Below, in pieces: positions 13,876 through 31,009 of a DNA stretch of 64,000 bases. The stretch's first letter is position 1, and every line of letters begins with the position of its first letter. The position numbers and the translations under genes are program-made. Origin of the DNA: an uncultured bacterium (GTDB lineage: Bacteria; Krumholzibacteriota; Krumholzibacteriia; Krumholzibacteriales; CAZTHK01). Under the pieces are notes generated by a model, which ran no database searches, was not told the DNA's origin, and saw only the letters and a list, made by a program, of their open reading frames with translations. Location: positions 99,486-163,485 of the forward strand of contig CAZTHK010000001.1 in assembly GCA_964613215.1 (NCBI GenBank), written 5' to 3'.

Positions 13876-13898
13876 TTTTTTTTGCTGTTATAATTTAG

Positions 13899-15045: not shown

Positions 15046-15046
15046 T

Positions 15047-16354
15047 ATGGAAAAGCAAATTCCGGAGAATAAATATGATGTACTGGTGGTAGGGGGTGGA
15101 ATAGCGGGGCAGGAGGCTGCTCTCAATATGGGGAACCTGGGCTACCGGGTCCTCCTGGTGGAGAAGGACCTCTCCATAGGGGGGAAGATGATCCTTTTGA
15201 GCAAGGTTTTTCCCACCCTCGATTGTGCCGCCTGTATCGCCACACCTAAGATGTCGGAGACGGCAAGGCATCCCAATATATCCATTTATACCAACAGCCG
15301 TATCAGGGGGATCAGAAAGAACTCAGATGAATCTTTTCAGGCCGGTCTGGTGATTAAGCCCCGGTATGTGGATGAGAAAGCCTGCACCGGATGTCAGGAC
15401 TGCGAAGAGGTATGCCCGGTGGTGGTAAGAGATCAGTATCAGTATGATCTGGTAGGGCGGAAGGCGGCTTTTATACCCTTCAGTGTTGCCAGCCCCCGGA
15501 TAGCCAGCATAGATATTGACAACTGCATACTCTGCGGGGCATGTGAGAAGGCCTGCCCTGCCGGTGCCATAGATTTCAGCAGGGAAGAAGAGGAGATACC
15601 GGTCAGGGTTAAGTCGGTGATACTGGCTACCGGTTTTCACCTCTTCGATCCCACTCAGATGGAACGGTACGGCTACGGGAAGTATAGGAATGTAATAACC
15701 TCCATGCAGATGGAGAGACAGCTGGTCCCAACCAGGCCCTACAACAACGTGCTCAGGCCGGGGGACGGCAAGATGCCGGATGATATAGCTTATGTTCTTT
15801 GCACCGGATCGAGGGATGACACGGTTGGCACACCGATATGCTCCCAGATATGCTGCATGTATTCCATAAAACAGGCTCAACTGATAATGGGCGCTCTGCC
15901 CATGGCGGATGTGACAATATACTATATTGATATCAGGGCCTTCGGAAAGGGATTCGAAGAATTCTACAACCAGGCCAGGGATATGGGGGTTTCATTCATC
16001 AAGGGGAAGATAGGAGAGATCGAGGGAGAGGTTGATGGCGATCTTACCCTTAAGTATGAGGATGTTGAAACCAGCACCTACCGGGAGGCTCAGCACGATA
16101 TGGTGGTGCTGTCGGTAGGGGTAATGGCAAACCGCGATCCGGCCGGATTCTTCCGTGAGAGGGCTCTGGAGCTGGATCAGTATGGATTTGTCAGGCAGTT
16201 GGATGAGCTTGCCAATCCTGCCAGAACCAGTATCGAAGGGGTGTTTGCCGCCGGGACGGCTACAGCACCAATGGATATACCGGATTCCATAGCATCAGCC
16301 GGTGCGGCTGCGGCGGAGGCGGCGGGCTACCTGAAATCGAAGGGGATAAAATGA
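15047..16354 (+). CDS. HdrA-type FAD/Fe-S flavoprotein, QmoA-like
   Basis: FAD fold VLVVGGGIAGQEAA. HdrA non-cubane cluster signature CTGSRDDTVGTPICSQICC. Inserted ferredoxin motifs CTGCQDCEEVCP and CILCGACEKACP. Confidence 0.85.
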   Translation: MEKQIPENKYDVLVVGGGIAGQEAALNMGNLGYRVLLVEKDLSIGGKMILLSKVFPTLDCAACIATPKMSETARHPNISIYTNSRIRGIRKNSDESFQAGLVIKPRYVDEKACTGCQDCEEVCPVVVRDQYQYDLVGRKAAFIPFSVASPRIASIDIDNCILCGACEKACPAGAIDFSREEEEIPVRVKSVILATGFHLFDPTQMERYGYGKYRNVITSMQMERQLVPTRPYNNVLRPGDGKMPDDIAYVLCTGSRDDTVGTPICSQICCMYSIKQAQLIMGALPMADVTIYYIDIRAFGKGFEEFYNQARDMGVSFIKGKIGEIEGEVDGDLTLKYEDVETSTYREAQHDMVVLSVGVMANRDPAGFFRERALELDQYGFVRQLDELANPARTSIEGVFAAGTATAPMDIPDSIASAGAAAAEAAGYLKSKGIK

Positions 16355-18309
16355 GGGAGAGGATCGGAGTATATATATGCCACTGTGGTTCCAACATATC
16401 CGATTATGTTGATGTGGAGGCGGTAAGGGAGGCGGTGTCCGGAGAGGAGGGTGTGGCCCTTGCTAAAACCACCATGTTCGCCTGTGCCGATTCGGCCCAG
16501 AGTGAGATGGTAAGTGATATAAAGGAGAATCAGCTGGATGGCCTGGTGGTTGCTTCATGCTCTCCCAAGCTCCACCTCTACACCTTCAGAAATGTGGCTG
16601 AGAGGGCCGGGTTGAATCCATTCAACTATGTTCAGGCAAATATAAGAGAGCAGGTTTCCTGGGCTCATTCCGACAGGCCCGAACAGGCCACCCGCAAGGC
16701 CATCCGGGTGGTGAAATCGGCCATTTCCAGGGCGAGGCTGTCAAAGCCGCTGACCCCCCCCACCATATCATCCGAAAATGTGGTTCTGGTAGTGGGTGCT
16801 GGAGTAGCAGGGATGAGGACCGCCATAGAACTGGCCGATATGGGATCCCATGTTTACCTGATAGAGAAGGATCATTTTGCCGGCGGCAGGGTTGCTCAAT
16901 GGGGAGGAGTGTACGGAACCGATGAGAGGGGGTATGAGATAACTGCCAGGCTGTATGATGAGGTAAAGGCAAGGGATAGAATTAATCTTTTCACCGGTAC
17001 CGGGATAGAATTTGTATCGGGAAGTGTGGGCAACTTCGAGGTAACCCTGAAGAAGCATCCCCGCAATTTTTCGCAGGAGGGAGTTGATACGGATACTCCG
17101 GAATTCAGGGAGAAGCTGTCCCGGGCCATGGAGGCCTGCCCCGAAGAAGTACCCGATCCCTTTGATTTCGGGCTGACCGGCAGAAGGGCCATTTATCCCA
17201 ATCATCCCGGGCAGTATCCGGCCATCCCTGCCATAGATGGTCAGGCCTGTACCCGCTGCGGCAAGTGCGAGGAGATACTTCCGGGGGTTGACCTGAATCA
17301 GGAGGAGGAATCGATCACTGTCAGTGTGGGAGCAATTGTGCTGTGCACCGGTTTCGATCCCTACCAGCCATCCCACGGGGAATTCGGCTACGGTGAGATA
17401 GATAATGTTATAACCCTTCAGGAATTCAGAAGGCTGATCTCACTGAGTGAGGGTGGCAAGCTGACCTATAATAACAGAAGGATAAATAATATTTCCTATA
17501 TATACTGTGTGGGAAGCAGGCAGATAGAGGGGGAGAATAAATACTGTTCCAGATACTGCTGCTCTTCGGCAATCTACACTGCCATTATGGCCGGGGAGAA
17601 GTTCAAGGATATCAAGAACTTCCATTTCCACAGGGGGATAAGAAGCTACGGCAAACAGGAGTCACTGTACCAGGAATCATCCGCCAGTGGGGATATATAT
17701 TTCCAGTGCTCTGACGATGAGATTCCCAGTGTGGGGCAGGATGGTGGTGAAACGGTGGTAAAGATAAACGATATATTGACTTCTGGAAGGGAGATAGAGG
17801 TTGAGTCGGATCTGGTGGTTCTGGTAACCGGGATGGAGCCCGGAAGCAATGGCACCCTGGTTGACCTTCTGAAAGTTCCCCTGGGCAGGGACGGTTTCTT
17901 CAATGAGGTCCACCCCAAGTTGAAACCGGTGGAGATTGTTATGGACGGTATCTTTATTGCCGGCACCTGCCATTCACCCAAGAATATTACCGAGACCATG
18001 AACTCCGCCCTCTCCGCCGCAGTTAAGTCTAATTCACTGATAAGTGCAGGCGAGATCGAACTGGAACCGGCTATGGCCCGGATCGACCCGGCCCTGTGCG
18101 AATGGTGCGGGAAGTGCAGTGAAGCTTGCCCCTTCGATGCTATCATAAGGGAAGAAGCTGAAGATAAAGTGATCGCCTCTGTGAGTGAAGCTAACTGCAA
18201 GGGATGCGGGATGTGCCTCCCGGTGTGTCCGGTGAATGCCATCCAGTTGACCGGCAATTCCGATGCAGAGATAGAGAGCATGATAGACGCTCTGATACAG
18301 CAGGAATAG
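16351..18309 (+). CDS. HdrA-type FAD/Fe-S flavoprotein, QmoB-like (lacks fused MvhD domain)
   Basis: ATGA overlap with the preceding gene. FAD fold VVLVVGAGVAGM. HdrA signature CVGSRQIEGENKYCSRYCC. C-terminal 2x[4Fe-4S] motifs CEWCGKCSEACP and CKGCGMCLPVCP. TAG stop. Confidence 0.85.
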   Translation: MRERIGVYICHCGSNISDYVDVEAVREAVSGEEGVALAKTTMFACADSAQSEMVSDIKENQLDGLVVASCSPKLHLYTFRNVAERAGLNPFNYVQANIREQVSWAHSDRPEQATRKAIRVVKSAISRARLSKPLTPPTISSENVVLVVGAGVAGMRTAIELADMGSHVYLIEKDHFAGGRVAQWGGVYGTDERGYEITARLYDEVKARDRINLFTGTGIEFVSGSVGNFEVTLKKHPRNFSQEGVDTDTPEFREKLSRAMEACPEEVPDPFDFGLTGRRAIYPNHPGQYPAIPAIDGQACTRCGKCEEILPGVDLNQEEESITVSVGAIVLCTGFDPYQPSHGEFGYGEIDNVITLQEFRRLISLSEGGKLTYNNRRINNISYIYCVGSRQIEGENKYCSRYCCSSAIYTAIMAGEKFKDIKNFHFHRGIRSYGKQESLYQESSASGDIYFQCSDDEIPSVGQDGGETVVKINDILTSGREIEVESDLVVLVTGMEPGSNGTLVDLLKVPLGRDGFFNEVHPKLKPVEIVMDGIFIAGTCHSPKNITETMNSALSAAVKSNSLISAGEIELEPAMARIDPALCEWCGKCSEACPFDAIIREEAEDKVIASVSEANCKGCGMCLPVCPVNAIQLTGNSDAEIESMIDALIQQE

Positions 18310-18313
18310 AAAA

Positions 18314-18589
18314 GTGAGTGAGAATAGAACAGTAGATATAATGAAGAAGAAGAGAAAGGTCCCCGGAGAAGTGAGGGAGGGGATGAAGAATTTCAACCGG
18401 ATCAAGAAGACCATTCTCGAGGTCCTCAGGGAGGGTCCGGCTACCATTCCCGGGATTGCCGGCAAGACAGGAATGTCTCAACATATAGTGACTTATCACC
18501 TTATGACAATGATGAAGTATGGAGTGGTGGAGGCGGACAGGCCGGATGATATGGATGAGTATTATTATTACAGAGTGAAGGAAAATTGA
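18314..18589 (+). CDS. Small winged-helix DNA-binding protein (possibly only 68 aa, from the ATG at 18383, which has a strong RBS GAGGGAGGGG)
   Basis: HTH-like …TIPGIAGKTGMSQHIVTYHLMTMMKYGVVEA…. It sits 4 nt after the qmoB-like gene and 1 nt before the qmoC-like gene. Confidence 0.55.
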   Translation: MSENRTVDIMKKKRKVPGEVREGMKNFNRIKKTILEVLREGPATIPGIAGKTGMSQHIVTYHLMTMMKYGVVEADRPDDMDEYYYYRVKEN

Positions 18590-18590
18590 T

Positions 18591-19757
18591 ATGGCTCGAA
18601 TCGACCACAAGTTTGCTTCACAGATCGAGGAATTCGGAGGGATTGATTTCACCGCCTGTTACAATTGCGGCAACTGCACTGCAGTTTGCCCTCTGGTTGA
18701 GGAGAACAGTTCCTTTCCCCGGCGGATGCTGAGGTATACTATCCTGGGCCTGGAGGAGGATATCCAGGGCTCCCTGGATCCCTGGCTGTGCTACTACTGC
18801 GGTGATTGCAGCGAGACCTGCCCCCGCCAGTCCAACCCGGGGGAGATAATGATGTCCCTGAGGAGATACCTCACCTCGGTCTATGACTGGACCGGCTTTT
18901 CCAGGAGGTTCTACACCTCGAAGGTGTGGGAGCTGGGATCAATAGGAGCAGTGGCAGCTATGGTAGTGATACTGTTTGCAATCTTTCTTCCCCCTACTGC
19001 CGATCCGGCCAATCTTATAAATTCCGCCGGAGGAGTAAGGATAAACAGTTTCGTTAAGGGTATGGAGGGTGAAACATTCGTCAGTGTCATAGAACTGGGT
19101 GACTGGGTAATGGCTGCCATAGTATCATTCTTTCTGCTCTCTAACATCTTCAATATGTATCTGAAGGTGGTTATTAAGAACAAAAAGGTAAAGATCCCCC
19201 TCCATCTATATGTAAAGGAGGCCTGGAACCTCTTCTATCATTTTGGCACCCAGATAAGGTTGTCCAGATGCACGGATAAATCATACTGGGCCCTTCACTG
19301 GCTGCTGATGTCCGGATATACTATTATGTTTACCATGATTGTTGTTTTTCTGCCCTGGTTCCAGGTGGAAAAGGTCCATCCCGTCACTCACCCCCAGCGT
19401 ATTCTGGGCTACTATGCAACCTTCGGCCTTCTCTTCGCCATTGCCATCTGGATGATAAGGAGGATCAGAAAGAGGGATGAGAAACACCGCTATTCCCATT
19501 CCACCGACTGGATATTTCTGATAATGCTCTTTCTTACCACCCTGACCGGAATCATGGTTCACCTGTTCAGGATAAACGGAATGATATATTTCACCTACTA
19601 TACCTACGTGATACATCTGGCTGTTCTGGTACCCATGCTGGTGCTGGAAGTCCCCTTCTCCAAGTGGTCTCACCTGGCATACCGGCCCTTTGCCATGTAT
19701 TTCAATAACCTGATTAACTCCGCCGTTATTATTGATGATAAGAAGCGACAGGGTTAA
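18591..19757 (+). CDS. QmoC-like membrane subunit: HdrC-like 2x[4Fe-4S] domain fused to HdrE/NarI-like di-heme-b membrane domain
   Basis: N-terminal CYNCGNCTAVCP and CYYCGDCSETCP motifs, then about 6 TM helices bearing conserved His (HWLL, VHLF, IHLAV, SHLAYRP). Confidence 0.75.
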   Translation: MARIDHKFASQIEEFGGIDFTACYNCGNCTAVCPLVEENSSFPRRMLRYTILGLEEDIQGSLDPWLCYYCGDCSETCPRQSNPGEIMMSLRRYLTSVYDWTGFSRRFYTSKVWELGSIGAVAAMVVILFAIFLPPTADPANLINSAGGVRINSFVKGMEGETFVSVIELGDWVMAAIVSFFLLSNIFNMYLKVVIKNKKVKIPLHLYVKEAWNLFYHFGTQIRLSRCTDKSYWALHWLLMSGYTIMFTMIVVFLPWFQVEKVHPVTHPQRILGYYATFGLLFAIAIWMIRRIRKRDEKHRYSHSTDWIFLIMLFLTTLTGIMVHLFRINGMIYFTYYTYVIHLAVLVPMLVLEVPFSKWSHLAYRPFAMYFNNLINSAVIIDDKKRQG

Positions 19758-20024: not shown

Positions 20025-20678
20025 ATGTTCAAAGTAAAAGTCTTGGTTTTTTCACTGTTGCTTGTTTTCGCAACTAACGTGTTCGCTGGTGATGTGGACC
20101 CGTGTGAAAGCGAAACTGGACAGAGCTGTTCGCCTATGATGCTGAACATTTGTCCTTTCGGCGACATGGAGAATATTTTCGAGAGTTGTACAACAGCCAT
20201 AGAAGATACCCATTACGTATACATCTATGTGAGAGATGTGTTAGGTAATGGCGTAGCTGGTATTCCGGGCTCGGATTACTGGCTGGGCGCTTGTGACAGC
20301 CAGTATGATCTCTGCCTGTGTGCCGAACCCATTGTAGCCGATTATATCACCAACGACGAAGGCTACACTGAGTTTTCAGGCACAATCGCCGGCGGCGGTT
20401 GTGTGAACAGTGGCGGAATCTATATAGCAGTTCAGGGTAAGATCATCCAGGAAGCTGGATGCACAGGTTATGACTGTGTGGACATGATAATCAAGAGTCC
20501 CGATCTTACAGCAGACTGTCAGGTCAACCTCTCAGATCTCAGTGCATTCGGTCTGACATACACATTAAGCTCAGGTGATACTGACTATAATAGTTGTGCA
20601 GATTACAATGATGATGACTCTGTTAATCTGAGTGACCTGTCGTTTTTCGGAATTCATTATCTGCACACATGCCAGTAA
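20025..20678 (+). CDS. Secreted Cys-rich protein with C-terminal dockerin (type I-like) module
   Basis: Signal peptide MFKVKVLVFSLLLVFATNVFA. Two 12-residue Ca-binding-loop repeats, DLTADCQVNLSD and DYNDDDSVNLSD, each followed by LS(A/F)FG. Strong RBS AGGAGG. Confidence 0.75.
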   Translation: MFKVKVLVFSLLLVFATNVFAGDVDPCESETGQSCSPMMLNICPFGDMENIFESCTTAIEDTHYVYIYVRDVLGNGVAGIPGSDYWLGACDSQYDLCLCAEPIVADYITNDEGYTEFSGTIAGGGCVNSGGIYIAVQGKIIQEAGCTGYDCVDMIIKSPDLTADCQVNLSDLSAFGLTYTLSSGDTDYNSCADYNDDDSVNLSDLSFFGIHYLHTCQ

Positions 20679-20784
20679 TGGTATGACCGGTGTATGATAA
20701 TTATTTCCAACAATCCTGATTTGCTATTTTTAAATTAGTTGGATTACACCTTAGGGCTGCATTAAAATACGGGAGTTGGAGACT

Positions 20785-21339
20785 ATGAAGAGAGTACTGT
20801 TGACAATTGCTATGGTTCTCCTAATTCCAGGAGTGATCAACGCACAGACCATGGGTGTCTACTTCGACGGTCCGGGGCAGATGGCATATTCTCCCTCGGG
20901 TGCGTTTGTATTATTCGACGCTTACATATATCTGCATGAAGCGGATTACTATGTAACCGGCGCCGAATATCAGCTGCAGACACCTGAAGATCCGGAGCAC
21001 ACTTACTTTAGTTTCCAGAGTATAGAGTATCCGGATAACATGTCGGTTAATCTGGGTGATCCCTGGGCAGGCCATTCTATTTCTTACTGGCCGCCGTTAA
21101 ATGGGTATGAACCTGGCTATAACCTGCTGCTCACTCTTAAGGATTGCTACATTACAGGGCCTTGCGACTGGACTGATTATCCTATCGTTATAGGTCCTCA
21201 TCCTGCAAACGGAGGACCGTGGATCGCTTACACACCTGATAATGAATTAGCTCTCGTTATTGGGTACACTTCGATTCTTTGCCCTGTGATTGGTACCCAG
21301 GAGGAAAGCTGGGGCGCCATCAAATCGATGTATGAATAA
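20785..21339 (+). CDS. Secreted protein, distant paralog of the two downstream genes; ends …EESWGAIKSMYE
   Basis: Signal peptide MKRVLLTIAMVLLIPGVINAQ. Shares its architecture and the invariant C-terminal tail with 21510..22052 and 22221..22763. ATG 20785 is preceded by GGGAG. Confidence 0.75.
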   Translation: MKRVLLTIAMVLLIPGVINAQTMGVYFDGPGQMAYSPSGAFVLFDAYIYLHEADYYVTGAEYQLQTPEDPEHTYFSFQSIEYPDNMSVNLGDPWAGHSISYWPPLNGYEPGYNLLLTLKDCYITGPCDWTDYPIVIGPHPANGGPWIAYTPDNELALVIGYTSILCPVIGTQEESWGAIKSMYE

Positions 21340-21509: not shown

Positions 21510-22052
21510 ATGAAAAAGGTTTTATTGCTAACTGTTGCGATACTTATGTTTTCCAGCTTAGCAATAGCTCAGAATCCTCCGCAGGGATACATTGGAATTT
21601 TTGCGGATGAAACCAAATCGAGCAATTGCTACGAGGGCGATCTAATGGCACCTATGTACATGTACATCTGGTGCCTGCCCAGTGAGTATGGGCAGATGGC
21701 TGCCGAGTTTATGGTTACTTATCCTGCTAATGTTATCACAAGTACCGTAACTGCAGCTCCTCATATCGCAGTATCCATGGGAGATCTGGCCTCAGGTATC
21801 AGCTACAGCTACACGGAATGCCAGTGGGACTGGCACTGGGATTACAAGCAGCTGATGTATGTTACTGACTCCAGCGGCACCCAGGTAGATATAGTGGCTC
21901 ATCCCGATGTGGGAACCTATCAGTTCTCGAACTGTGAAGACGGTTTCCCCATTGAGCCATGCATCTATTACACCCCTCTGTACCTGAATGTCTGTGGTCC
22001 GACCGGGACCGACGATGCCAGCTGGGGTGCTATCAAGGGTATGTATGAATAA
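21510..22052 (+). CDS. Secreted 6-Cys protein of unknown function, paralog B; ends …DDASWGAIKGMYE
   Basis: Signal peptide MKKVLLLTVAILMFSSLAIAQ, RBS AAGGAGG, and about 85% aa identity to 22221..22763. Confidence 0.8.
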   Translation: MKKVLLLTVAILMFSSLAIAQNPPQGYIGIFADETKSSNCYEGDLMAPMYMYIWCLPSEYGQMAAEFMVTYPANVITSTVTAAPHIAVSMGDLASGISYSYTECQWDWHWDYKQLMYVTDSSGTQVDIVAHPDVGTYQFSNCEDGFPIEPCIYYTPLYLNVCGPTGTDDASWGAIKGMYE

Positions 22053-22220: not shown

Positions 22221-22763
22221 ATGAAAAAGGCTCTACTTCTTGGTGTGGCGCTGCTGCTGGTTTCCAGCATGGCGCTGGCTCAGCTTCCTCCACAGGGTTA
22301 CATTGGGATCTATGCGGATGAAACCAGATCGAGTAATTGCTACGATGGCGATCTAATGGCACCTATGTACATGTACATCTGGTGCCTGCCCAGTGAGAAT
22401 GGGCAGATGGCTGCCGAATTTATGGTCACTTATCCTGCTAATGTTATCACAAGTACCGTAACTGCAGCTCCCCATATCGCAGTATCCATGGGAGATCTGG
22501 CCTCAGGGATCAGCTACAGCTACACGCAATGTATGTGGGATTGGCACTGGGATTACAAGCAGCTGATGTATGTTACTGACTCCAGCGGCACCCAGGTAGA
22601 TATAGTGGCTCATCCCGATGTGGGAACCTTTCAGTTCTCGAACTGTGAAGACGGTTTCCCCATTGAGCCATGCATCTACATCACTCCTCTGTATTTGAAC
22701 GAATGCGGCCAGGTTGGCGCAGATGAAAGCAGCTGGGGTGCTGTCAAGAGCATGTTCGAATAA
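22221..22763 (+). CDS. Secreted 6-Cys protein of unknown function, paralog C; ends …ESSWGAVKSMFE
   Basis: Signal peptide MKKALLLGVALLLVSSMALAQ and a strong RBS. A canonical terminator follows it. Confidence 0.8.
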   Translation: MKKALLLGVALLLVSSMALAQLPPQGYIGIYADETRSSNCYDGDLMAPMYMYIWCLPSENGQMAAEFMVTYPANVITSTVTAAPHIAVSMGDLASGISYSYTQCMWDWHWDYKQLMYVTDSSGTQVDIVAHPDVGTFQFSNCEDGFPIEPCIYITPLYLNECGQVGADESSWGAVKSMFE

Positions 22764-22794
22764 GCATAATTCATAAATGGTAATGCTTTTTCAA

Positions 22795-22830
22795 GGGAGG
22801 AGAGTTGCAATATCTCCTCCCTTTTTTATT
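22795..22830 (+). terminator. Rho-independent terminator: GGGAGGAGA-loop-TCTCCTCCC + TTTTTTATT
   Basis: 9-bp GC-rich stem with a 9-nt loop and a T6 tract, 32 nt after the stop of paralog C. Confidence 0.8.
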
Positions 22831-23063: not shown

Positions 23064-26000
23064 TTGAAGAGCCGGGGAATTTTTTATAACCTGGGGCCGG
23101 GTTTGATCCTTGCCGTTTTATTTTTATCCATCTTTACAATCAATGGTTATGGAGAGGTCCATTCCCTCAGCTCCGGCAGTGGCAGAATCAGTTTCAGGAT
23201 AACCGTTCCCCCGCCTCGACTTGTTCCCGCCGGGAAGGACGGAATAAGAGTGTTGCTGGAAGGATATGGCAGTTTTTCTCCACCGGGTGCAATTGAACTG
23301 CCCGGCAGGACCTTCCGGTTGGCTATACCTCCGGGGGTCAGTCCGGGACTTTCTTACACTGTAATGGAAAGCAGCGATCTGGGAGAATTAGAAATTGCCC
23401 GGGTATCCGGTGAGAAGATGATTCAGAATGAAGATGGAACCGTTTCATACCGTTCCTTCATGCCACCCGACCCATGGGAAGATAAAAACCTTCCCCCCCC
23501 TGTAAGGACAGGAGAACCCGGATACATGGGGCATCAGCGGGTTCTTCCCATAGAGGTATCTCCTCTGCAGATAAGCAGCGGCGGCAGGGTGACCCTGGTG
23601 CGGGAGATCAGTTTAAGGGTAAGTTATAACCGGACACCTGATGAGATGGGAAGTGCCGACGGACTAATTCAGAAACCCTCAAAAGCCTGGCAGAGGCTGT
23701 ACAGAAATACCCTGGTTAATCCGGGTGATGTTTCCAGGTTCATCCGGCCGCTTAAACAGAGGAGGGTTAGGGAATCTGGCTTTCAGGCGGAGAAGAGGCT
23801 CAAAATCCGCATTCCTGAAACTGGTATCTACAGTATAAGAGCAGATTCCCTTATTAGTGCGGGTATGTCGGTTGGGCTTACCACCGGGTTCTTCTCCCTC
23901 AGGCAGTACTACTATGATGAATCAGAACCTGATTTGCTGAGGAGTGAAGAAATCCCCATCCTGATAGATGAGGGGGAAAATGGGGTAGAGGGTATTTTCG
24001 ACAGCAATGACAGGCTCATCTTCTATGCCCGGGGTATAAAGGACGATCCGGATGCAGGTGATACAGAAGCAGCTTTTACCGATTATAATGTGGCCTGGCT
24101 GGAAGAGGAAGTGCCCGGTTCAATTATGGGGGAGGGCCCGGAACTTCCTGACACTGCCGGTTATCAGTCCCCTCAGTACAGAGCGGTCAAGAAGCTGAGA
24201 GATGACAGTTTCTTTCTGAAATACCCCATTCCCAATACCACGGACTTTTATTTCATCTCCAGTATGCCCGGTGGAAGAAGTGTTCAGCTTCCCTTACAGA
24301 TCGAAGAACCGGCCGGGGAAGGTGATTTTTCCCTGACCGTTACACTCCAATGGTTTAATGTCACTTCACCTCAGAACATCAACTTCGAGATAAGCAATTC
24401 CGGCGGTACCAGGGAGATGGGATCAGGTATACTTGATGTGGAAGAAAAAAAGAGCTTTACCTTTCAGGGTCTGGATGTGGATTGGCTGGTGGATGGAACC
24501 AACCAGCTTATCATAACCAGTAACATCAGAACCGGCTTCCTGGTGGATGAAGTGAGGATAGATTATCATTCCCGGTGGGTGGCCAGGGATAACTCTCTGG
24601 AGTTCGAGTACGGGCCCAGCATATCAGACAGAGAATATAATATTGAGGGATTTGCCACTGATTCAGGCTGCCTGATAGATGTAACCGATCCAGAAAATCC
24701 TACCTGTAATGAACTAACCGCGGAATATTTCCAGCAGGAGGGGGAAAGCTACACTTTGAATATATATCTTCCGGCCGGGGAGCGGAGGCATTTTATAGTC
24801 ATAGGGGAAGATGGTGCTGCGGAGCTGCCTCTCTCCCATGTTTCCCTGCATCTTCCGGCCCATCTGAAGGAGCAGGGTGGACCCTATAACAGCCTGGTGA
24901 TTACCCATCCCCGGTTTCGATCCCGCCTCAGTGAATATGTATCCTGGAGAGAAGACCAGGGTTATCGCATTCTTACTGCCACGGTGGGTCAGATCTACGA
25001 TGAATTCAATGGGGGCAGGCCTCACTGCAGAGCGATCAAACGGTTTATCCAGTATGGTTTTGATTACTGGGGGGTGGAGTTTGTTCTTCTGGCAGGCGAT
25101 GCCAGCGAGGATCACAAGCGTGTCTTTACCAGGGATTCTCCCTATACCTCCTCGGATGGTTCCGGGGAGGATTTTGTTCCTTCCTATACCTACTGTCCCC
25201 GGGTATCTTCCTCGGTTAAGGATGAAGTGGTAGCTTCGGACAAGTGGTATACCTTCCTGGATGTGGAAGGGCAGGACAGGCTTCCCGATGTTTTTATCGG
25301 CCGCATACCGGTGGGGGAGGAGATCGAACTAAGGGCTTATCTTAACAAGCTTTATAGTTTTGAGGAACCCGGGGTCAGCCAGAGCTGGCGCAGGCGCATA
25401 GTGCTGATGGCGGACGATGCCTGGTCCATAAACGGCGATTACCGCTACAACGCCTATGAAAATCAGTTTCGTTACGGTATGGATACCGTGGCAGTGAGAA
25501 TAGAGGAAGCCCTGCCGGGTGGATTTGATATAGATAAGAAGTATCTGTCATATGTCACCGATCAATTTCATCCCAACCAGACCGAGCATGGAGCTTATGT
25601 ACATACCCGGTCGCGTGATTCCACCAGAGCCTACTATACTCCCCGGCTGGTCAGGAGTCTTAATGAGGGAGCGCTTTTCCTTGCCTTCCAGGGGCATGCC
25701 ATGAGGAGAGGACTTACCAGTGAAGGGGCCTTTATGACCGGGGCGGAGTATGACGATCAGGACAGCCTCAGGGTGTTTGGACTCCAACACATATTCCTGG
25801 GATTTGGATGTCACATCAACGAGTTTGCCAAGGCCAAAGAGATGGATTTTGTTTATGACGGTCCCAACGGAGATTGTTTCAGTGAGCAGCTGATGGTAAA
25901 GGCGGGAGCGGGAGCAATCGCCGCTTATGCCAGTTATACCTTCGAGTATCTGGATCAGAATAAGAGACTATGTAACACCTTTCACCGGATGCTCTTTCAG

Positions 26001-27107
26001 GAACCGCCATCGGATTCCATAGGACCGGCCAACCGCTATACCGGAGCCCACTGGACCCTGGGAGAGGCCTTTACCGGAGCAGAGATAGAGCATATGGGTA
26101 CCTCCACCTACGGGTATAACCAGGTGTTCCGTTATCAGCTGCTGGGAGATCCCATGACCGGTATCGATACCGGTCCTCCCCTTATGGCCATGGAGGTGGA
26201 CTGGGGAAGTGGTTGGAGGAGTGTGGAGCCTGGTTCACTCAGGGCGGAGGATGGAAGCAACCGGGGAAAATTCAGGTTTACCGCCAGTGATGTGGTTGCC
26301 CTGGGGGGTGTGGGACTGGAGGTTGATGGACGGGACTGGACCGATTCATTGACTATTACGGTCAACCCTGAAGATGAGGGAAAGACCTTTGCCAGAAGAT
26401 ATGCCGCCGAATTCGAACATACTCTTTCCCTGGAAGATCAGTATTTTCTGTTTCGGGTATTCGGGGTAAACGACAGTATTACTGGAAGGTTGGAGTATCC
26501 TGTAACCACCGCTGTAAGTATGTTCTATGGTGAGGATTTCGAGGTAACTCCAACCGTGGAGGCTCCCCCCTCCGGAACCTACACCATCAGGGTGAAGTTT
26601 CCCATTTATATTGATTCAAGTCCCAGCTTACTCCTGGATGGAAAACTTTTCGAGGAGGGCGAGCTGGCTCAGTCGGCCGGTGATTCCAGGTCCTGGGAGT
26701 CGGAGTTTTCCACCTCCTTCCAGCCGGGAGAGCATGTTTTCACCGTAGAGGTTGGGGAATACAGGGAAGATTTCATGTTTACAGTGGCCGGGGAGCGGGT
26801 TGTTCTGGAGACCTTCTGTTTTCCCAATCCCTTCAAAGAGGGCACCAATATTGTTTACACTCTTAATCAGAGGGTGGAATCCGGCAGGTTGAATATTTAC
26901 AATGTCAGCGGAGTTAAAATCAGAAGTTTCAGGCTGGATGGAAGGGGAGTGGATGCGGCAAGTTACATCCGGCCTCATTCTATTTACTGGGATGGAAGAG
27001 ACTTCACGGGGGAGGCTGTGGCTAATGGAACATATATATATCTGTTGAAGGTTAACCGGGGAAGCTCAGAGTATCAGATAAAGGGTAAAAGTGTGAAATT
27101 GGAATAG
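23064..27107 (+). CDS. Peptidase C25 (gingipain/PorU-like) family protein with C-terminal T9SS-type/FlgD-Ig-like sorting domain
   Basis: Signal peptide. C25 catalytic region (…HPRFRSRLSEYVSWREDQGY…VLLAGDA…FQGHAMRRG…GFGCHINEF). Last 80 aa carry …FCFPNPFKEGTNIVYTL…LNIYNVSGVKIRSF…YWDGRDFTGEAVANGTYIYLLKV…. TTG start, TAG stop. Confidence 0.85.
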   Translation: MKSRGIFYNLGPGLILAVLFLSIFTINGYGEVHSLSSGSGRISFRITVPPPRLVPAGKDGIRVLLEGYGSFSPPGAIELPGRTFRLAIPPGVSPGLSYTVMESSDLGELEIARVSGEKMIQNEDGTVSYRSFMPPDPWEDKNLPPPVRTGEPGYMGHQRVLPIEVSPLQISSGGRVTLVREISLRVSYNRTPDEMGSADGLIQKPSKAWQRLYRNTLVNPGDVSRFIRPLKQRRVRESGFQAEKRLKIRIPETGIYSIRADSLISAGMSVGLTTGFFSLRQYYYDESEPDLLRSEEIPILIDEGENGVEGIFDSNDRLIFYARGIKDDPDAGDTEAAFTDYNVAWLEEEVPGSIMGEGPELPDTAGYQSPQYRAVKKLRDDSFFLKYPIPNTTDFYFISSMPGGRSVQLPLQIEEPAGEGDFSLTVTLQWFNVTSPQNINFEISNSGGTREMGSGILDVEEKKSFTFQGLDVDWLVDGTNQLIITSNIRTGFLVDEVRIDYHSRWVARDNSLEFEYGPSISDREYNIEGFATDSGCLIDVTDPENPTCNELTAEYFQQEGESYTLNIYLPAGERRHFIVIGEDGAAELPLSHVSLHLPAHLKEQGGPYNSLVITHPRFRSRLSEYVSWREDQGYRILTATVGQIYDEFNGGRPHCRAIKRFIQYGFDYWGVEFVLLAGDASEDHKRVFTRDSPYTSSDGSGEDFVPSYTYCPRVSSSVKDEVVASDKWYTFLDVEGQDRLPDVFIGRIPVGEEIELRAYLNKLYSFEEPGVSQSWRRRIVLMADDAWSINGDYRYNAYENQFRYGMDTVAVRIEEALPGGFDIDKKYLSYVTDQFHPNQTEHGAYVHTRSRDSTRAYYTPRLVRSLNEGALFLAFQGHAMRRGLTSEGAFMTGAEYDDQDSLRVFGLQHIFLGFGCHINEFAKAKEMDFVYDGPNGDCFSEQLMVKAGAGAIAAYASYTFEYLDQNKRLCNTFHRMLFQEPPSDSIGPANRYTGAHWTLGEAFTGAEIEHMGTSTYGYNQVFRYQLLGDPMTGIDTGPPLMAMEVDWGSGWRSVEPGSLRAEDGSNRGKFRFTASDVVALGGVGLEVDGRDWTDSLTITVNPEDEGKTFARRYAAEFEHTLSLEDQYFLFRVFGVNDSITGRLEYPVTTAVSMFYGEDFEVTPTVEAPPSGTYTIRVKFPIYIDSSPSLLLDGKLFEEGELAQSAGDSRSWESEFSTSFQPGEHVFTVEVGEYREDFMFTVAGERVVLETFCFPNPFKEGTNIVYTLNQRVESGRLNIYNVSGVKIRSFRLDGRGVDAASYIRPHSIYWDGRDFTGEAVANGTYIYLLKVNRGSSEYQIKGKSVKLE

Positions 27108-27251: not shown

Positions 27252-27962
27252 TTGAGAAAACGACTGGAAAAGATCGCCGGTAAGGATAAGCGCGTAATTA
27301 TAGGGATAACCACGGGTAATCCCCCCTACCGGCCTGGGGCTGCAATAGTGGAAGTGAGCGGCAATGGTGAAAAGACCGTTCTGGATCTTCATTACTTTCA
27401 CAGTATCTCTTTACCGGCTGATTTTATCAAAGCGGTAAAGGCACTCGACCGTGGAGCGGAGTTTGACAGGGAGGATATGACCGGGATCAGCTTTCTTCTG
27501 ATGCACAGCCTTTCCAATCTGGTTCAGACTCTGCTTGATCTGATTCAGGCGGATAATTCAGATGTTGATCTGATAGGGCTTAAATGCCTGGAGGTAAGTG
27601 GCAAGATACTACCCCAGGATCTGACCGCTTTCAGCGAGATGACCGGTAACATCGTGGCCAGCAAATTTGGTGTAGTTACCGGGGGTGAGGGGGATGACTA
27701 TCTTTCTCTGAACCAACAGCTTTTTTACGGTATGGTCGGCGATATGGTGGAAAAATACGGGCTGGAGGATGATGTAAGGGAAGCGGTGGGAGTGGCTCTG
27801 CTGGCCAATGAATCTTTATTCTATGAAAGCAGCAAAGAACGCGGGGAAGAGGAGAACGGAGACGAATATGGGGGCAGGTTGAGCCTGCAGACGGTTAAGA
27901 GGACCGGGGATAGAGACCGGTCCCTGCTCCGGGGACAGTTTTTCTTTCCCAGTGACGACTGA
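27252..27962 (+). CDS. Hypothetical protein; N-terminus weakly resembles anhydro-N-acetylmuramic acid kinase (AnmK), possibly a truncated or divergent copy
   Basis: TTG start after GGAGGGG. The segment RVIIGITTGNPPYRPGAAIVEV resembles the AnmK GxMSGTSxDGxD motif. At 236 aa it is much shorter than AnmK, which is about 370 aa. Confidence 0.4.
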   Translation: MRKRLEKIAGKDKRVIIGITTGNPPYRPGAAIVEVSGNGEKTVLDLHYFHSISLPADFIKAVKALDRGAEFDREDMTGISFLLMHSLSNLVQTLLDLIQADNSDVDLIGLKCLEVSGKILPQDLTAFSEMTGNIVASKFGVVTGGEGDDYLSLNQQLFYGMVGDMVEKYGLEDDVREAVGVALLANESLFYESSKERGEEENGDEYGGRLSLQTVKRTGDRDRSLLRGQFFFPSDD

Positions 27963-28017
27963 GGAGCCCGGGACAATATAATATTTCACCGTTTTGATAG
28001 AATTTATACAACCATAA

Positions 28018-29364
28018 ATGAGACATAATAATAGTGATATTACCATAGGGTACAGTAATCACGATTCAGTGAAGAAAACCACCTTAATCCTTTTCAGTTA
28101 TGCCATCATATTTTTTCTTCTTTATTCCTGCGTGGGACCGGGGATGCCGGAAAGACCCCTTCCTGATGAAGAGCCGGTGATACCATCGGCGGCACCGGGG
28201 GAACCGCCTCTGGTCAGGGTACTGGTGGGCAGGGCCAGTAGCAGGGTACGTATAATTGCCCAGGGTGGTGTTTCGGTGGGAAAGGGTCCGGCTATGGTTC
28301 CCCTCAGAAGTTTCAGGGAGGGAGGTACCTTTATCTTCAGGTCCGGTGCAGGAGTGGTGGCCGGGTATGCGGGGAACAAGTATCTGATGGAGGATGAGGT
28401 ACTGGCGATACATCCCCACGGGGGGGGGAGGGTATTTCTAAACGGTAGACCATACAGGGGTGGATTTATACTCAGGCTATCGGGGAAGGGGGTAATAGCC
28501 ATAAACGTTCTGGAGGTGGATGATTACATAAAGGGAGTGCTCCCTGCTGAAATAGGATATCTGGATGATTCTCAGTACCAGGCGTACCGGACTCAGGCTA
28601 TTGCCGCCAGAACATACGCTCTCAGCAAGTTGAAAGAGAAAAAGAACCGTCTCTTCGATTTGAGGGCAACTGTAATGGATCAGGTGTACCGGGGAGTAAA
28701 GGGGGAAATGCCCACCGCTTCAGAGGCGGTGGAGGATACCAGGGGGTTGGTATGTCTCTGGAAGGGGAAGCCGGCAAGGGCTTACTATTGCGCTTGTTGT
28801 GGAGGCCATACGGCCGATATAAGGGTGGGATGGTCCTGGAAGGAATCCTATCCCTACCTGTACGGAGTGAGGGATACGGCGGGAAATAATAACCCCGGCT
28901 CTCTTTGCCGCTATTCAAGTCATTTTCGCTGGAGAGAGAGTTGGACCGGAAGGGAGTTGGAGAGGATGTTCAGAGAGACCCTTCCCGCCGAGTTGGGTGT
29001 TGAGAGGAGCAGGGTGGGCAGGCTGCGGGATATAAGAATAGGGGGCTATGCCCGCAGCGGAAGGGTGAGGAAATTGATGATTTATACCGACCGGGGAGAT
29101 TTCCGGGTGGAGGGTGACCGAATAAGGTGGGTGCTGATGAGGGATGTTGGCTCAGGTGCTATTTTGAGAAGTACCCTGTTTAAGATGAAGGTTTTCAGAA
29201 AAGATGGGGTGGTGAGAGAGGTTCGTATCAGGGGGGGTGGAAATGGCCACGGTGTAGGGATGTGCCAGGCTGGTGTTATAAGAATGGCCGAACTGGGCTA
29301 TGCCGCTGAGGAGATTCTCACCCATTACTATCCCGGTGTGAATATCGATTATTATTACCGGTGA
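28018..29364 (+). CDS. SpoIID/LytB-domain protein (lytic transglycosylase/amidase-enhancer family)
   Basis: SpoIID-domain signature …YLDDSQYQAYRTQAIAARTYALSKL…CCGGHTAD…, with an N-terminal lipoprotein-like signal. Confidence 0.85.
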   Translation: MRHNNSDITIGYSNHDSVKKTTLILFSYAIIFFLLYSCVGPGMPERPLPDEEPVIPSAAPGEPPLVRVLVGRASSRVRIIAQGGVSVGKGPAMVPLRSFREGGTFIFRSGAGVVAGYAGNKYLMEDEVLAIHPHGGGRVFLNGRPYRGGFILRLSGKGVIAINVLEVDDYIKGVLPAEIGYLDDSQYQAYRTQAIAARTYALSKLKEKKNRLFDLRATVMDQVYRGVKGEMPTASEAVEDTRGLVCLWKGKPARAYYCACCGGHTADIRVGWSWKESYPYLYGVRDTAGNNNPGSLCRYSSHFRWRESWTGRELERMFRETLPAELGVERSRVGRLRDIRIGGYARSGRVRKLMIYTDRGDFRVEGDRIRWVLMRDVGSGAILRSTLFKMKVFRKDGVVREVRIRGGGNGHGVGMCQAGVIRMAELGYAAEEILTHYYPGVNIDYYYR

Positions 29365-29368
29365 CCAT

Positions 29369-31009
29369 ATGATTGATGATGTTATAAAAGGTGTATCCCC
29401 CCATATGATTGCGGGGGTGAAGGGTCCATCTCTGACCGAAAGGGAAATCGATCTCTTTTCTCTGTATCCCCCCGGAGGAATTATTCTTTTCAGCCGTAAC
29501 GTAAACGGCAGGGATCAGTTGAATAATCTTACCGGAGAGATAAACGAGATCATAACCAGGAGTTCCGGCAGGGCTCCCATTATTGCCGCCGACCACGAAG
29601 GAGGGATAATTTCAGTTCTGGCGGAGGCAACAGGTGTTCCTCCTTCTGCTCTGGCGATGGGTAAAGTGGAAGATAAGGAGGTCAGGTTACAGGTATACCG
29701 GGATAGTGCCAGGCTTCTGAAGGGTTGCGGGGTGAATTTACTGCTTGCTCCGGTTGCTGATGTAAATTCTGAGCCCCTCAATCCGGTGATAGGCCAGAGG
29801 GCTTTCGGGGAGGAGGTGGATTTGGTTTCTTCCATGGTTGCTGAGTTCGTCGCTGTCATGCGGCACCATGGTATAGGTACCTGCCTGAAGCACTTCCCCG
29901 GTCATGGATCATCCCGCCAGGATTCACATCTGACCCTTCCCCGTCTTGATAGGTCACTCCATCAGATGATGGAGAGCGATATGATTCCCTTTATCCGGGG
30001 GATGGAGCGAGGTGCCGATTCAGTAATGATAGGTCATCTGCTTCCAGCCGGGAGGGATCTTCCCTGTACCATCGATAGATATGTAGTGGAGGGATTGCTC
30101 CGGAAGAAATTCTGTTTTGAAGGTATAATTCTTACCGATGCCATGGAGATGAAGGGCATCTCCGGAACAGGCAGAGCTGGAGATAATGCTGCAGGAGACT
30201 ACTCCCTGATCGAGCTGATCTCTCTGGCATTGAGAGCGGGTAACGATGCAGTGCTCCTCTCCGGGCCCTACCGGGAAGTTACAGATATGTTGATCAGTTC
30301 CGGCCATTCCGGGATTGACTGGCCGGAACGCATCTATGAATCGGAGGGGAGGCTTAATAGCTTCAGGGACCATCTGGGTGATAATGATAACGAGCCCGGC
30401 CGGGGTATTGAAGAGCTGTCCACTCCCCCGGAAAGGGAGGTTGCTGGTGTTAGATTCGGCGGAAGGATAGATTTGTATCCTTCTTCTTACAGAGTGGCGG
30501 CGGAGGAATCGGTGAAGTTGCTTGAACCTGCCGGTATTTTCCTGCCCCTCCCAGGGCCCGGGGATGTGTTGCTGGATTTTGTGGGGGAAATGGATGATTT
30601 TGAGAATGTGCCGGTAAAGAGATTTATCCGGTTGATTCTGAACAGGTGGGAGGAAGTGGCAGGGAGGAGGCACAGATCTGATCCGGGGCTTAATAATTTA
30701 GATTCATTCCCTTCACCCCTGGCGCTTTGCCCGGATGAACGGACCCCTTCAAAAAAAAATGAAGCTCCTCTGTATAGTTTCAGGGAGGGGAAAATGGAAG
30801 ATCCCGGCGCAGTGATAGTCTTTCTGCTCAACCGGAGGCCGCTGGAAAAGAATATGGTGGATAGGGTAATTCATCATGCGGATATAGTGGTGGTGGGAGG
30901 ATGGCATTATGCTTCTGAACTGGTCGGGCCGGAGAAGTGCCTTCTGATAAGTTATGGGATTTTTGATGCATCGGCTGATGTAATCGGATCTATCCTTGGT
31001 ATAGGCTAG
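29369..31009 (+). CDS. nagZ: GH3 beta-N-acetylhexosaminidase (NagZ-like) with C-terminal extension
   Basis: GH3 N-terminal domain with the KHFPGHG motif and the catalytic region …ILTDAMEMKGI…. Confidence 0.85.
   Translation: MIDDVIKGVSPHMIAGVKGPSLTEREIDLFSLYPPGGIILFSRNVNGRDQLNNLTGEINEIITRSSGRAPIIAADHEGGIISVLAEATGVPPSALAMGKVEDKEVRLQVYRDSARLLKGCGVNLLLAPVADVNSEPLNPVIGQRAFGEEVDLVSSMVAEFVAVMRHHGIGTCLKHFPGHGSSRQDSHLTLPRLDRSLHQMMESDMIPFIRGMERGADSVMIGHLLPAGRDLPCTIDRYVVEGLLRKKFCFEGIILTDAMEMKGISGTGRAGDNAAGDYSLIELISLALRAGNDAVLLSGPYREVTDMLISSGHSGIDWPERIYESEGRLNSFRDHLGDNDNEPGRGIEELSTPPEREVAGVRFGGRIDLYPSSYRVAAEESVKLLEPAGIFLPLPGPGDVLLDFVGEMDDFENVPVKRFIRLILNRWEEVAGRRHRSDPGLNNLDSFPSPLALCPDERTPSKKNEAPLYSFREGKMEDPGAVIVFLLNRRPLEKNMVDRVIHHADIVVVGGWHYASELVGPEKCLLISYGIFDASADVIGSILGIG

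Follow-up and report, generated by a model that had tools for sequence, protein, structure and literature searches.

A PorU-like C25 peptidase encoded next to tail-tagged cohesin-like proteins in an uncultured Krumholzibacteriota bacterium

The window, that is, the whole 64-kb stretch of DNA analysed here, encodes a 1347-aa protein. Sequence evidence supports its assignment to the C25 peptidases; its His/Cys dyad is intact, and it ends in an Ig domain resembling those of T9SS proteins. Sequence profiles and predicted fold both support PorU as its closest characterised relative. We favour, at a probability of roughly 0.55, the reading that this protein is the T9SS-type CTD sortase of Krumholzibacteriota, with the adjacent tailed cohesin-like proteins as a second group of clients. 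As judged from sequence, the family is a divergent PorU-like enzyme with a region resembling a gingipain prodomain; it occurs in uncultured FCB phyla and is genomically coupled to a tailed cohesin-fold family.

Catalytic residues and domain architecture

The C25 gene starts with TTG and, including the stop codon, occupies positions 23064..27107 on the plus strand, as do all further features given below. The open reading frame and translation proposed in an earlier note on this DNA are present, and the public gene calls contain an identical protein. The Pfam model Peptidase_C25 (PF01364) matched residues 611-1032 (24894..26159) with E=8.4e-61 and 206.7 bits at a cut-off of 23, the alignment spanning model positions 2-372 of 374, and the same model matched all 31 orthologs. 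The catalytic residues are His878 (codon CAT, 25695..25697), located at the end of LFLAFQGH and aligned with the His of PorU 'YAGHG', and Cys916 (codon TGT, 25809..25811), located in IFLGFGCH ('GFGCH') and aligned with the Cys of PorU 'TATCD'. Neither position (H689 and C727 in the numbering of the trimmed alignment) varied across 31 aligned sequences. The order of His and then Cys, each ending a hydrophobic strand, is the arrangement of clan CD. The AF2 model (pLDDT 75.5) displayed a gingipain-like catalytic fold, with Foldseek matches to RgpB (1cvr, E=7.7e-18, TM on target 0.64) and Kgp (4rbm, E=5e-15). The C25 catalytic His/Cys region reported earlier is therefore borne out, and the substitution of catalytic residues which had been named beforehand as refuting the proposal did not occur.

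The domain architecture extends well beyond the catalytic domain on both sides. Residues 1-30 (MKSRGIFYNLGPGLILAVLFLSIFTINGYG, followed by EV; 23064..23153) were read by eye as a signal peptide, and the N-terminal region is conserved among orthologs. This is followed by a gingipain-type prodomain-like region (approximately residues 31-200; 23154..23663), recognised by a match of family profile positions 54-216 to the Kgp prodomain 5mun_A (E=7.4e-4). Propeptide_C25 (PF08126) matched five of the 31 orthologs (best E 9e-5), and the 1347-aa protein itself had no match to this Pfam model at E<=1. Right after the prodomain-like stretch, profile positions 226-271 aligned with PorU residues 19-64 at only 9.4 bits. 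A PorU-like beta-rich region then spans approximately residues 243-610 (23790..24893), as assigned by Foldseek, by the AF2 model, in which it is mainly beta, and by the NCBIfam model T9SS_sortase, positions 5-728 of which aligned with residues 243-1030. Ig-like beta-sandwich domains (approximately residues 1033-1246; 26160..26801) connect the catalytic domain to the CTD; they are all-beta in the AF2 model and lie inside the full-length Foldseek match to PorU.

The protein ends in an elongated Ig-like domain of approximately 100 aa (26802..27104), a FlgD_ig or T9SS type-A-like CTD according to profile matches and the alignment to the PorU CTD (32.7 bits with the family profile). It contains the strings PNPF (1254), IYNVSG, YWDGRD (1308), and GTYIY (1322). 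On the C25 protein, TIGR04183/Por_Secre_tail scored 15.4 bits, under its cut-offs of 23/27, and FlgD_ig (21.2 bits, cut-off 27) and CHU_C (17.4 bits) were sub-threshold as well. Among the orthologs, FlgD_ig matched 31 of 31 (best E 7e-9) and Por_Secre_tail 10 of 31 (E<=0.01). An HMM built from the CTD of the C25 protein found C-terminal domains of approximately 83 aa on FG-GAP, GH53, and S8 proteins of related genomes. By these sequence comparisons the C-terminal domain is real. The earlier note had described it as a typical T9SS sorting domain; the strings and the domain hold, the latter through FlgD_ig in every ortholog, but 'typical' was an overstatement as all curated cut-offs were missed. 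Of the two HMM searches proposed in that note, Peptidase_C25 gave a clear match, while TIGR04183 stayed below its cut-off.

Relationship to PorU and the gingipains

To our knowledge, PorU-type sortases have been studied almost exclusively in Bacteroidota. Their recognition signal there is a folded CTD, 70-100 residues long, and PorU removes CTDs and passes the cargo on to anionic LPS. In phmmer searches, PorU was the sole direct PDB sequence match of the C25 protein. The family profile matched PorU (6za2) with E=3.6e-33 in four collinear matches, and Foldseek aligned the same structure with E=2.8e-42 over approximately 1260 columns, at an identity of 14% in the structural alignment. In contrast, the NCBIfam PorU equivalog NF033707 (model length 1095), which has a cut-off of 420, gave a score of 184.1 bits; the PorU2 model NF052324, with a cut-off of 450, gave 108.6 bits. 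The designation as PorU-like thus stands as a relationship of profile and fold and falls short of equivalog assignment.

The multi-domain architecture of PorU is present in the C25 protein. Both (PorU as in 6ZA2) have a C25 catalytic domain with the His/Cys dyad in the same order, a beta-rich region N-terminal and Ig-like domains C-terminal of it, and a long Ig-like CTD of 108 aa in PorU and approximately 100 aa in the C25 protein (PMC11285876). The long CTD type is that of PorU and PorZ, machinery proteins which keep their CTD uncleaved (PMC11285876). The C25 protein differs from PorU by approximately 190 additional N-terminal residues resembling a gingipain prodomain, whereas latency of PorU is intermolecular according to the title of PDB entry 6ZA2. 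The gingipains RgpB and Kgp (MEROPS C25; 1CVR, 4RBM, prodomain 5MUN) share with the C25 protein the peptidase family, a prodomain-like N-terminus, and a post-catalytic Ig-like domain followed by a T9SS-like CTD. However, they lack the PorU-like region of approximately 370 residues and gave far weaker matches than PorU, and they are cargo with a cleaved CTD, whereas the CTD of the C25 protein is of the long, uncleaved machinery type (PMC11285876).

The genomic setting also differs from that of PorU. The host phylum is not Bacteroidota, in which porU and porV are usually adjacent, and the C25 gene in the window has no porV neighbour. Among the scanned ORFs of the 64-kb window and approximately 1.2 Mb of annotated flanks, there was no homolog of sprA, porV, gldK-N, or porZ, and no T9SS core gene or porV adjoined any of the C25 homologs examined. 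The CTD-bearing hydrolases of related genomes hint only indirectly at a T9SS.

Tail-tagged neighbours and conservation of the locus

The C25 gene is located downstream of three tail-tagged genes, as had been noted before. These encode a cohesin-like paralog of 187 aa ending in ESWGAIKSMYE (20776..21339), a cohesin-fold protein of 180 aa ending in ASWGAIKGMYE (21510..22052), and a second cohesin-like paralog of 180 aa ending in SSWGAVKSMFE (22221..22763) that is 86% identical to the product of the preceding gene. Between the third of these genes and C25 lie 300 bp with a strong terminator-like hairpin and a T-run behind it (22793..22823; dG -19.2 kcal/mol, z=-5.4), and the C25 gene appears to be a transcription unit of its own. 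The tailed proteins have a predicted cohesin fold, identity to cohesins being approximately 10%, and searches of Pfam and NCBIfam returned no model matching them. Elsewhere, the cohesin-like module occurs in giant proteins ending in CTDs.

The first gene of the cluster (20025..20678) encodes a secreted protein of 217 aa with an X-module and a dockerin-like C-terminus. The profile of this family matched two type II X-dockerin modules, 4wi0_B and 2b59_B, with E=1.5e-7 and a dockerin, 2y3n_B, with E=2.3e-7, and its two 'D..VNLSD...FG' segments correspond to the duplicated Ca-binding loop-helix segments of dockerins. The family is co-conserved with C25. Dockerin-bearing enzymes were not seen in the loci examined.

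The tail follows the pattern [EQ][ED]x[ST]-W-G-x-[IV]-K-[SA]-[LM]-[YF]-x(0-2)-stop. Among 138 unique examples, W, G, and K are invariant, and in nearly all cases 3-5 residues follow the Lys. Beta-helix proteins can carry the tail as well. With 9-13 residues, it is amphipathic and has no hydrophobic anchor. In its conservation and distribution, the tail acts like a C-terminal signal of modular type. Many paralogous secreted proteins that end in one short invariant motif, and whose genes cluster beside that of a cysteine peptidase, recall LPXTG/sortase, PEP-CTERM/exosortase, GlyGly-CTERM/rhombosortase, and the clan CD transamidases (GPI8, legumain-type ligases). LPXTG, PEP-CTERM, and GlyGly-CTERM signals, however, comprise a transmembrane helix and a basic tail, unlike the [ST]WGx[IV]K tail. 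The locus likewise resembles sortase-anchored and SLH-anchored cohesins of Gram-positive cellulosomes (for example R. flavefaciens ScaE, 2ZF9; C. thermocellum type II cohesin with the CipA X-dockerin, 2B59), given its stand-alone cohesin-fold modules with a sorting-type C-terminal tail and the adjoining genes for a cysteine transpeptidase-like enzyme and an X-dockerin-like protein. ScaE is anchored by a sortase. By analogy with these cellulosomes, the cohesin would be covalently anchored and bound by its dockerin partner; the present organism is a diderm, however, and the locus has no LPXTG motif, membrane-spanning segment, or sortase-fold enzyme.

In three deep clades (25-48% identity), C25 homologs are preceded by arrays of tail-bearing genes with the same orientation, and the other neighbours of these loci differ between the clades. 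This lends comparative support to the proposed link between the enzyme and its tail-tagged neighbours. Throughout the deep lineages, genomes have essentially a single copy of the C25 gene itself. In clade C, tail genes are missing from the surrounding 10 kb for about half of the C25 homologs, and a second tail-gene locus has no C25 gene within 8 kb. Downstream of C25, the window encodes AnmK-like, SpoIID, and GH3 proteins, and other clades have a MurQ-like gene with an ABC transporter, or HEAT-cyclophilin. Peptidoglycan-recycling genes (AnmK-like, SpoIID, GH3, MurQ-like) are directly downstream in clades A and B. Because these genes are equally conserved, inherited synteny could account for much of the proximity between tail genes and C25 in these two clades.

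Proposed function and alternative explanations

In the sortase model that we favour, Candidatus Krumholzibacteriota has a PorU counterpart in single copy, the C25 protein. This would be a clan CD cysteine peptidase of approximately 150 kDa, exported by Sec, whose putative gingipain-type prodomain is likely an intramolecular latency device. The comparisons above show what kind of protein it is and the order of its domains; its function is what the model proposes. As for PorU, it would reach the outer face of the outer membrane via a T9SS-type pathway by its own uncleaved CTD, and act at the surface as C-terminal signal peptidase and transpeptidase ('sortase'), Cys916 forming a thioester with cargo prior to transfer to a surface acceptor. 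More tentatively, the tailed cohesin-fold proteins may form a privileged second class of clients, in which the short tail replaces the full CTD. The enzyme might clip this tail and attach the cohesin modules at the cell surface, where the X-dockerin-like protein of the cluster could dock; such an arrangement would be the Gram-negative counterpart of cohesins anchored by sortase. That the C25 enzyme cleaves or attaches the tail is purely what we infer. A tail of 9-13 residues cannot serve as a folded T9SS CTD, and the sortase model therefore leaves the outer-membrane crossing of the tailed proteins unexplained. Also counted against this model were the missed PorU and PorU2 cut-offs, the sub-threshold CTD, the lack of T9SS genes within the regions searched, the second tail locus without C25, and the hairpin between the tail genes and the C25 gene.

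The gingipain-like prodomain would suit a digestive protease equally well. The C25 protein could accordingly be a secreted zymogen, exported by its CTD and used for protein foraging, with the cohesin-like genes as unrelated neighbours kept by synteny. The similarity of the N-terminus to the Kgp prodomain, the RgpB/Kgp-like layout of prodomain, catalytic domain, Ig-like domain, and CTD (Foldseek E of approximately 1e-17 to 1e-15), and further peptidase genes (C69, S9) close by in the window are in line with this explanation. We regard it as unlikely, since PorU is a much better match, being the only one found by phmmer and aligning over the full length with a fold E of 2.8e-42 compared to 1e-17, and since the PorU-like region preceding the catalytic domain is missing from gingipains. 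Roughly one copy per genome across deep lineages would be unusual for foraging proteases, and the long PorU/PorZ type of CTD (PMC11285876) argues in the same direction. A somewhat more doubtful alternative is a dedicated, T9SS-independent transpeptidase specific for the tail, which might, for example, operate in the periplasm and join the [ST]WGx[IV]K tails of cohesin-like proteins with peptidoglycan, with a component of the outer membrane, or with one another. The conserved proximity of tail genes to C25 in three clades would fit, as would the absence of T9SS genes nearby, the peptidoglycan-recycling genes downstream in clades A and B, and the invariant tail Lys with few residues behind it, since clan CD transpeptidases such as legumain-type ligases also release short leaving groups. 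However, the enzyme shares its T9SS-like CTD with obvious secreted hydrolases, the cohesin-like module in giant CTD-ended proteins suggests a location at the cell surface and not in the periplasm, the peptidoglycan genes have cytoplasmic or recycling functions and are maybe merely syntenic, and in clade C about every second homolog lacks a nearby tail gene.

The position of the C25 enzyme beside tailed cohesin-like proteins hints at an undescribed route of surface-protein sorting. A far-reaching version, which we consider possible but rather doubtful, is a sorting system of FCB candidate phyla (Krumholzibacteriota, Latescibacterota-labelled lineages, Eisenbacteria) in which a PorU-like C25 transpeptidase, with its gene beside those of its main clients, would recognise and clip the TM-less tail of 9-13 residues, [ST]-W-G-x-[IV]-K-[SA]-[LM]-[YF]-x(0-2), and anchor stand-alone cohesins and some beta-helix proteins covalently on the outside, X-dockerins assembling on them into a diderm cellulosome-like scaffold. 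If the coupling is functional, diderm bacteria would have a short sorting signal of a new kind, a cohesin-dockerin surface scaffold outside Firmicutes would be suggested, and a short peptide tag together with its ligase might find practical use. If it is not, the C25 gene would still be a useful marker of T9SS-type surface attachment reaching Krumholzibacteriota.

A C8 homopolymer (23493..23500) is located in the prodomain-like region, where it encodes part of L-P-P-P-V (residues 143-147). The run is real, but its earlier interpretation as a potential slipped-strand switch, by which the C25 gene would undergo phase variation, is highly improbable. Eight bases are short for efficient switching, and at the level of assemblies the tract did not vary in length: two independent Logan assemblies (SRR7048228, SRR7048220) have the same C8 as the window. 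The PPP encoded by the tract is not conserved among orthologs. Runs of at least eight bases are no more frequent in the window than expected by chance (6 observed, 3.5 to 12 expected), and four of the six are located in ordinary housekeeping genes.

The C25 peptidase and its relation to PorU

The open reading frame at positions 23064–27107 on the forward strand begins with a TTG start codon and encodes 1347 residues; an identical protein has been recorded in NCBI and Logan assemblies (database entry P0001). The earlier note had called this gene a C25 peptidase with the catalytic His/Cys region, and both points were borne out. The Pfam model Peptidase_C25 matched residues 611–1032 (E = 8.4e-61), and a direct sequence search of the PDB yielded Porphyromonas gingivalis PorU (6za2) as the sole match, covering both the catalytic and the C-terminal domain. 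We then used A1, an alignment of the protein with 30 homologs, comprising orthologs of 42–49% identity and one remoter homolog (P0032, 24%); wherever the sources give a name, the orthologs are labelled Candidatus Krumholzibacteriota. The A1 profile matched PorU in four collinear stretches (E = 3.6e-33) and also RgpB, as well as FlgD Ig domains at the C-terminus, while profile positions 54–216 matched the Kgp prodomain (5mun, E = 7.4e-4). In the profile alignment, the family motifs FQGH and GxGCH fall on YAGHG and TATCD of PorU, placing the catalytic residues at His878 (CAT, 25695–25697, forward strand) and Cys916 (TGT, 25809–25811, forward strand). Their counterparts in the published PorU numbering are presumably His657 and Cys690. 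Neither residue is substituted in any of the 31 aligned sequences. Foldseek with an AlphaFold2 model of residues 190–1347 (pLDDT 75.5) placed PorU at the top (E = 2.8e-42, about 1260 aligned columns), followed by RgpB (7.7e-18) and Kgp (5e-15); the global TM-score was just about 0.4, as expected because the chain is multi-domain.

Read from the N-terminus, the protein, all of it encoded on the forward strand, consists of a signal peptide (recognized by eye), a gingipain-type prodomain-like region (approximately residues 31–200), a PorU-like beta-rich region (approximately residues 243–610), the C25 domain, Ig-like domains and, at the very end, a C-terminal Ig-like domain of approximately 100 residues. 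By every test applied, the protein is a C25 peptidase, and it is intact, with the architecture of PorU and a long C-terminal domain (CTD) of the PorU type. These lineages carry essentially one copy of the gene per genome.

Membership in the curated families is a different matter. The protein scored 184 bits against a cut-off of 420 for the PorU equivalog by the NCBI criterion, and 108 bits against a cut-off of 450 for PorU2. All C-terminal strings quoted previously as marks of a type IX secretion (T9SS) sorting domain are present, but the Por_Secre_tail score of 15.4 lies below its curated cut-off, as do those for FlgD_ig (21.2) and CHU_C (17.4). Among 31 orthologs, FlgD_ig was matched in all, Por_Secre_tail in 10, and CHU_C and Propeptide_C25 in five each. 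An HMM of the family CTD found C-terminal domains on an FG-GAP protein, two GH53 galactanases and an S8 subtilase encoded in the flanks of related genomes, one of which clears Pfam Por_Secre_tail (39.5 bits). These putative cargo domains span about 83 residues with the pattern PNPF...GVYF...K..LLK/R, and the enzyme's own CTD of about 100 residues carries an insertion relative to them. This contrast mirrors a published one, in which cargo CTDs are cleaved and measure 67–88 aa and the CTDs of PorU (108 aa) and PorZ (96 aa) are long and stay uncleaved (PMC11285876). On these results we regard the protein as a probable functional counterpart of PorU and do not count it as an established member of the PorU family. 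The gene represents a new, divergent subfamily of PorU-like C25 peptidases that lies outside Bacteroidota and carries a gingipain-like prodomain.

The short C-terminal tail and its link to the C25 gene

Three cohesin-like genes upstream of the C25 gene (20776–21339, 21510–22052 and 22221–22763, all on the forward strand) end in a short C-terminal tail (example peptide, TDDASWGAIKGMYE). Across the six-frame translation of the window, the pattern WG.[IVLM]K..[YFW] has three matches, one at the C-terminus of each of these genes. A2, the alignment of the tail family (35 sequences), shows no variation at the tail's Ser, Trp, Gly and Lys. From 138 unique tails we derived the consensus C-x(8-10 to the Trp)...[VI][PGA][TVA][EQ][ED]x[ST]-W-G-x-[IV]-K-[SA]-[LM]-[YF]-x(0-2)-stop, in which W, G and K never vary. 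No Pfam or NCBIfam model covers the family. The tail was also found on proteins of approximately 370 aa with a Pfam Beta_helix domain at two Eisenbacteria loci; it is therefore a modular signal and not merely the end of one family. These right-handed beta-helix proteins (L066, 19844–20953; L074, 19696–20811) end in SWGxVKxxFR and are encoded roughly 7 kb downstream from the C25 homolog. A remnant of a linker preceding cargo CTDs was considered as the origin of the tail and rejected, as no WGxIK motif stands ahead of the putative-cargo CTDs.

The C25 alignment picked up 79 loci when run against one genome of each GTDB species, and tail-bearing ORFs (about 190–250 aa) were called by script in their six-frame translations. 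The adjacency of C25 and tail genes that the earlier note pointed out gained comparative support. In clade A (41–48% identity), same-strand tail ORFs lie upstream in 26 of the 27 loci whose upstream sequence reaches 2 kb or more; in clade B (28–31% identity), where the labels are Krumholzibacteriia or Latescibacterota, they do so in 12 of 14 loci. Clade C (25–28% identity, mostly Eisenbacteria) has a flanking tail ORF at eight of 16 loci: upstream at seven, only downstream at one. Across the loci, just four tail ORFs lie downstream and none on the opposite strand. Clustering of the flank ORFs picked out four families that accompany C25 in clades A and B (tail, 217-aa, AnmK-like and SpoIID/GH3); in clade C a HEAT-cyclophilin protein takes the place of the downstream genes, yet the tail genes are still present. 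The adjacency is therefore partly plain synteny, and the link between C25 and tail survives turnover of the remaining neighbourhood. Reverse look-up of tail-family members led to two kinds of place, the C25 locus and a second conserved locus, where two to four tail genes are flanked by an NFACT-family gene and yicC and the surrounding 8 kb contain no C25 gene. Examples of the latter, in which the tail-bearing genes are cohesin-like, are L088 (7163–8561) and L089 (6879–13538).

Cohesin-like modules and a possible sorting system

The first gene of the cluster (20025–20678) encodes a secreted protein of 217 aa with an X-module and a dockerin-like C-terminus, as judged by profile comparison with the PDB. 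The family profile matches type II X-module-dockerins of clostridial scaffoldins (E = 1.5e-7), and the protein ends in two D..VNLSD...FG segments. The family is co-conserved with the C25 gene and at times sits directly downstream of it (L041, L050). Searches of the retrieved loci for dockerin-bearing enzymes turned up only this small X-dockerin family. A search of 1.84 billion representatives with the A2 profile gave 1855 relatives, many of which are proteins of 600–2466 aa that combine two or three tail-less cohesin-like modules with extended arrays of Ig-like repeats and a T9SS CTD of the classical type A. The cohesin-like module thus has two formats, within giant CTD-bearing proteins or alone with a short tail. 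The proteins P0090–P0100, which reach 2466 aa and carry two to three cohesin-like modules, dozens of Ig-like repeats and a type-A CTD, resemble scaffoldins of diderm bacteria.

The proximity of the C25 gene to modular tailed cohesin-fold proteins and an X-dockerin-like protein is conserved. By analogy with PorU (reviewed in PMC10202324), a T9SS-type route would export the enzyme, which at the surface would cleave C-terminal signals by way of a thioester at Cys916 and hand the cargo over to a surface glycolipid. More tentatively, the enzyme may also recognize the tail as a short additional signal, and the X-dockerin protein may bind the anchored cohesins. Clan CD transamidases have short leaving groups, which the invariant Lys of the tail and the 3–5 residues after it recall. 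We assign a probability of roughly 0.3 to a new tail-and-sortase sorting system by which cohesins would be anchored to the surface of a diderm. Against the mechanism stand the tailed proteins, for which no outer-membrane route is accounted for, the C25 gene, which has its own terminator-bounded unit, and the location of some tail genes elsewhere in the genome. The interesting part is the apparent coupling of C25 to a short tail on cohesin-fold proteins, for which comparative genomics alone argues. We did not find this coupling in Pfam, NCBIfam or the searchable literature, and the literature searched likewise gave no relevant report on the tail motif, on cohesin/dockerin in Latescibacteria or on T9SS in Krumholzibacteriota, Latescibacteria or Eisenbacteria. 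CTD proteins co-occur with T9SS genes, and T9SS may exist in further FCB phyla (PMC11285876).

Neighbouring genes and homopolymer tracts

No T9SS core gene was detected in the window among nearly all ORFs of at least 150 aa; those scanned include RND efflux, a two-component system, Hdr-like oxidoreductases, peptidoglycan genes, peptidases S9 and C69, and DNA repair. The C25 gene is followed by genes for an AnmK-like fragment, SpoIID and GH3 (NagZ-like), at 27252–31009. The 236-aa product of the first was rejected as PorV, PorT or another outer-membrane partner, since it is AnmK-like, matching just the N-terminal third of anhydro-MurNAc kinase; it and the two genes after it belong to peptidoglycan turnover, not T9SS. 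This block is syntenic with C25 in clades A and B, and clade B has an insertion of a MurQ-like gene and a sugar ABC transporter. Conserved clusters of seemingly unknown ORFs near C25 homologs were likewise rejected as hidden T9SS parts: clusters 5, 15 and 31 are artefacts of Arg-rich antisense ORFs, clusters 6, 12 and 13 are the MurQ-like and ABC transporter genes, and cluster 18 is the HEAT-cyclophilin. The Arg-rich ORFs, antisense to C25 and up to 2420 aa long (L010, L057, L081, L084 and other high-GC loci), cluster like a conserved family, an artefact of high G+C content.

The C8 run reported inside the coding sequence (23493–23500) is real and encodes part of L-P-P-P-V (residues 143–147), but the slipped-strand switch proposed for it found no support. 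The tract is exactly C8 in two independent assemblies, its PPP is not conserved among orthologs, and the window holds six homopolymers of at least 8 bases, four of them within ordinary genes, against 3.5 (independent bases) to 12 (first-order Markov) expected. Phase variation through this tract was rejected on these grounds. The other runs are G9 (675–683), T8 (13876–13883), C8 (16754–16761), G9 (28420–28428) and A9 (30751–30759), and three of the five fall within genes, those for the FAD/FeS oxidoreductase, SpoIID and GH3.

An FAD/4Fe-4S oxidoreductase cluster (HdrA-like, MvhD/VhuD-like; 14641–19757) is found a short way upstream of the cohesin-like genes. Two further proteins encoded on the reverse strand, a 1051-aa S9 peptidase with an N-terminal beta-propeller (34776–37931) and a rhomboid protease fused to TPR repeats (44097–45704), carry neither CTD nor tail. 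Finally, a 509-aa protein (51477–53006) consists of six BON domains (Pfam, E = 3e-82).
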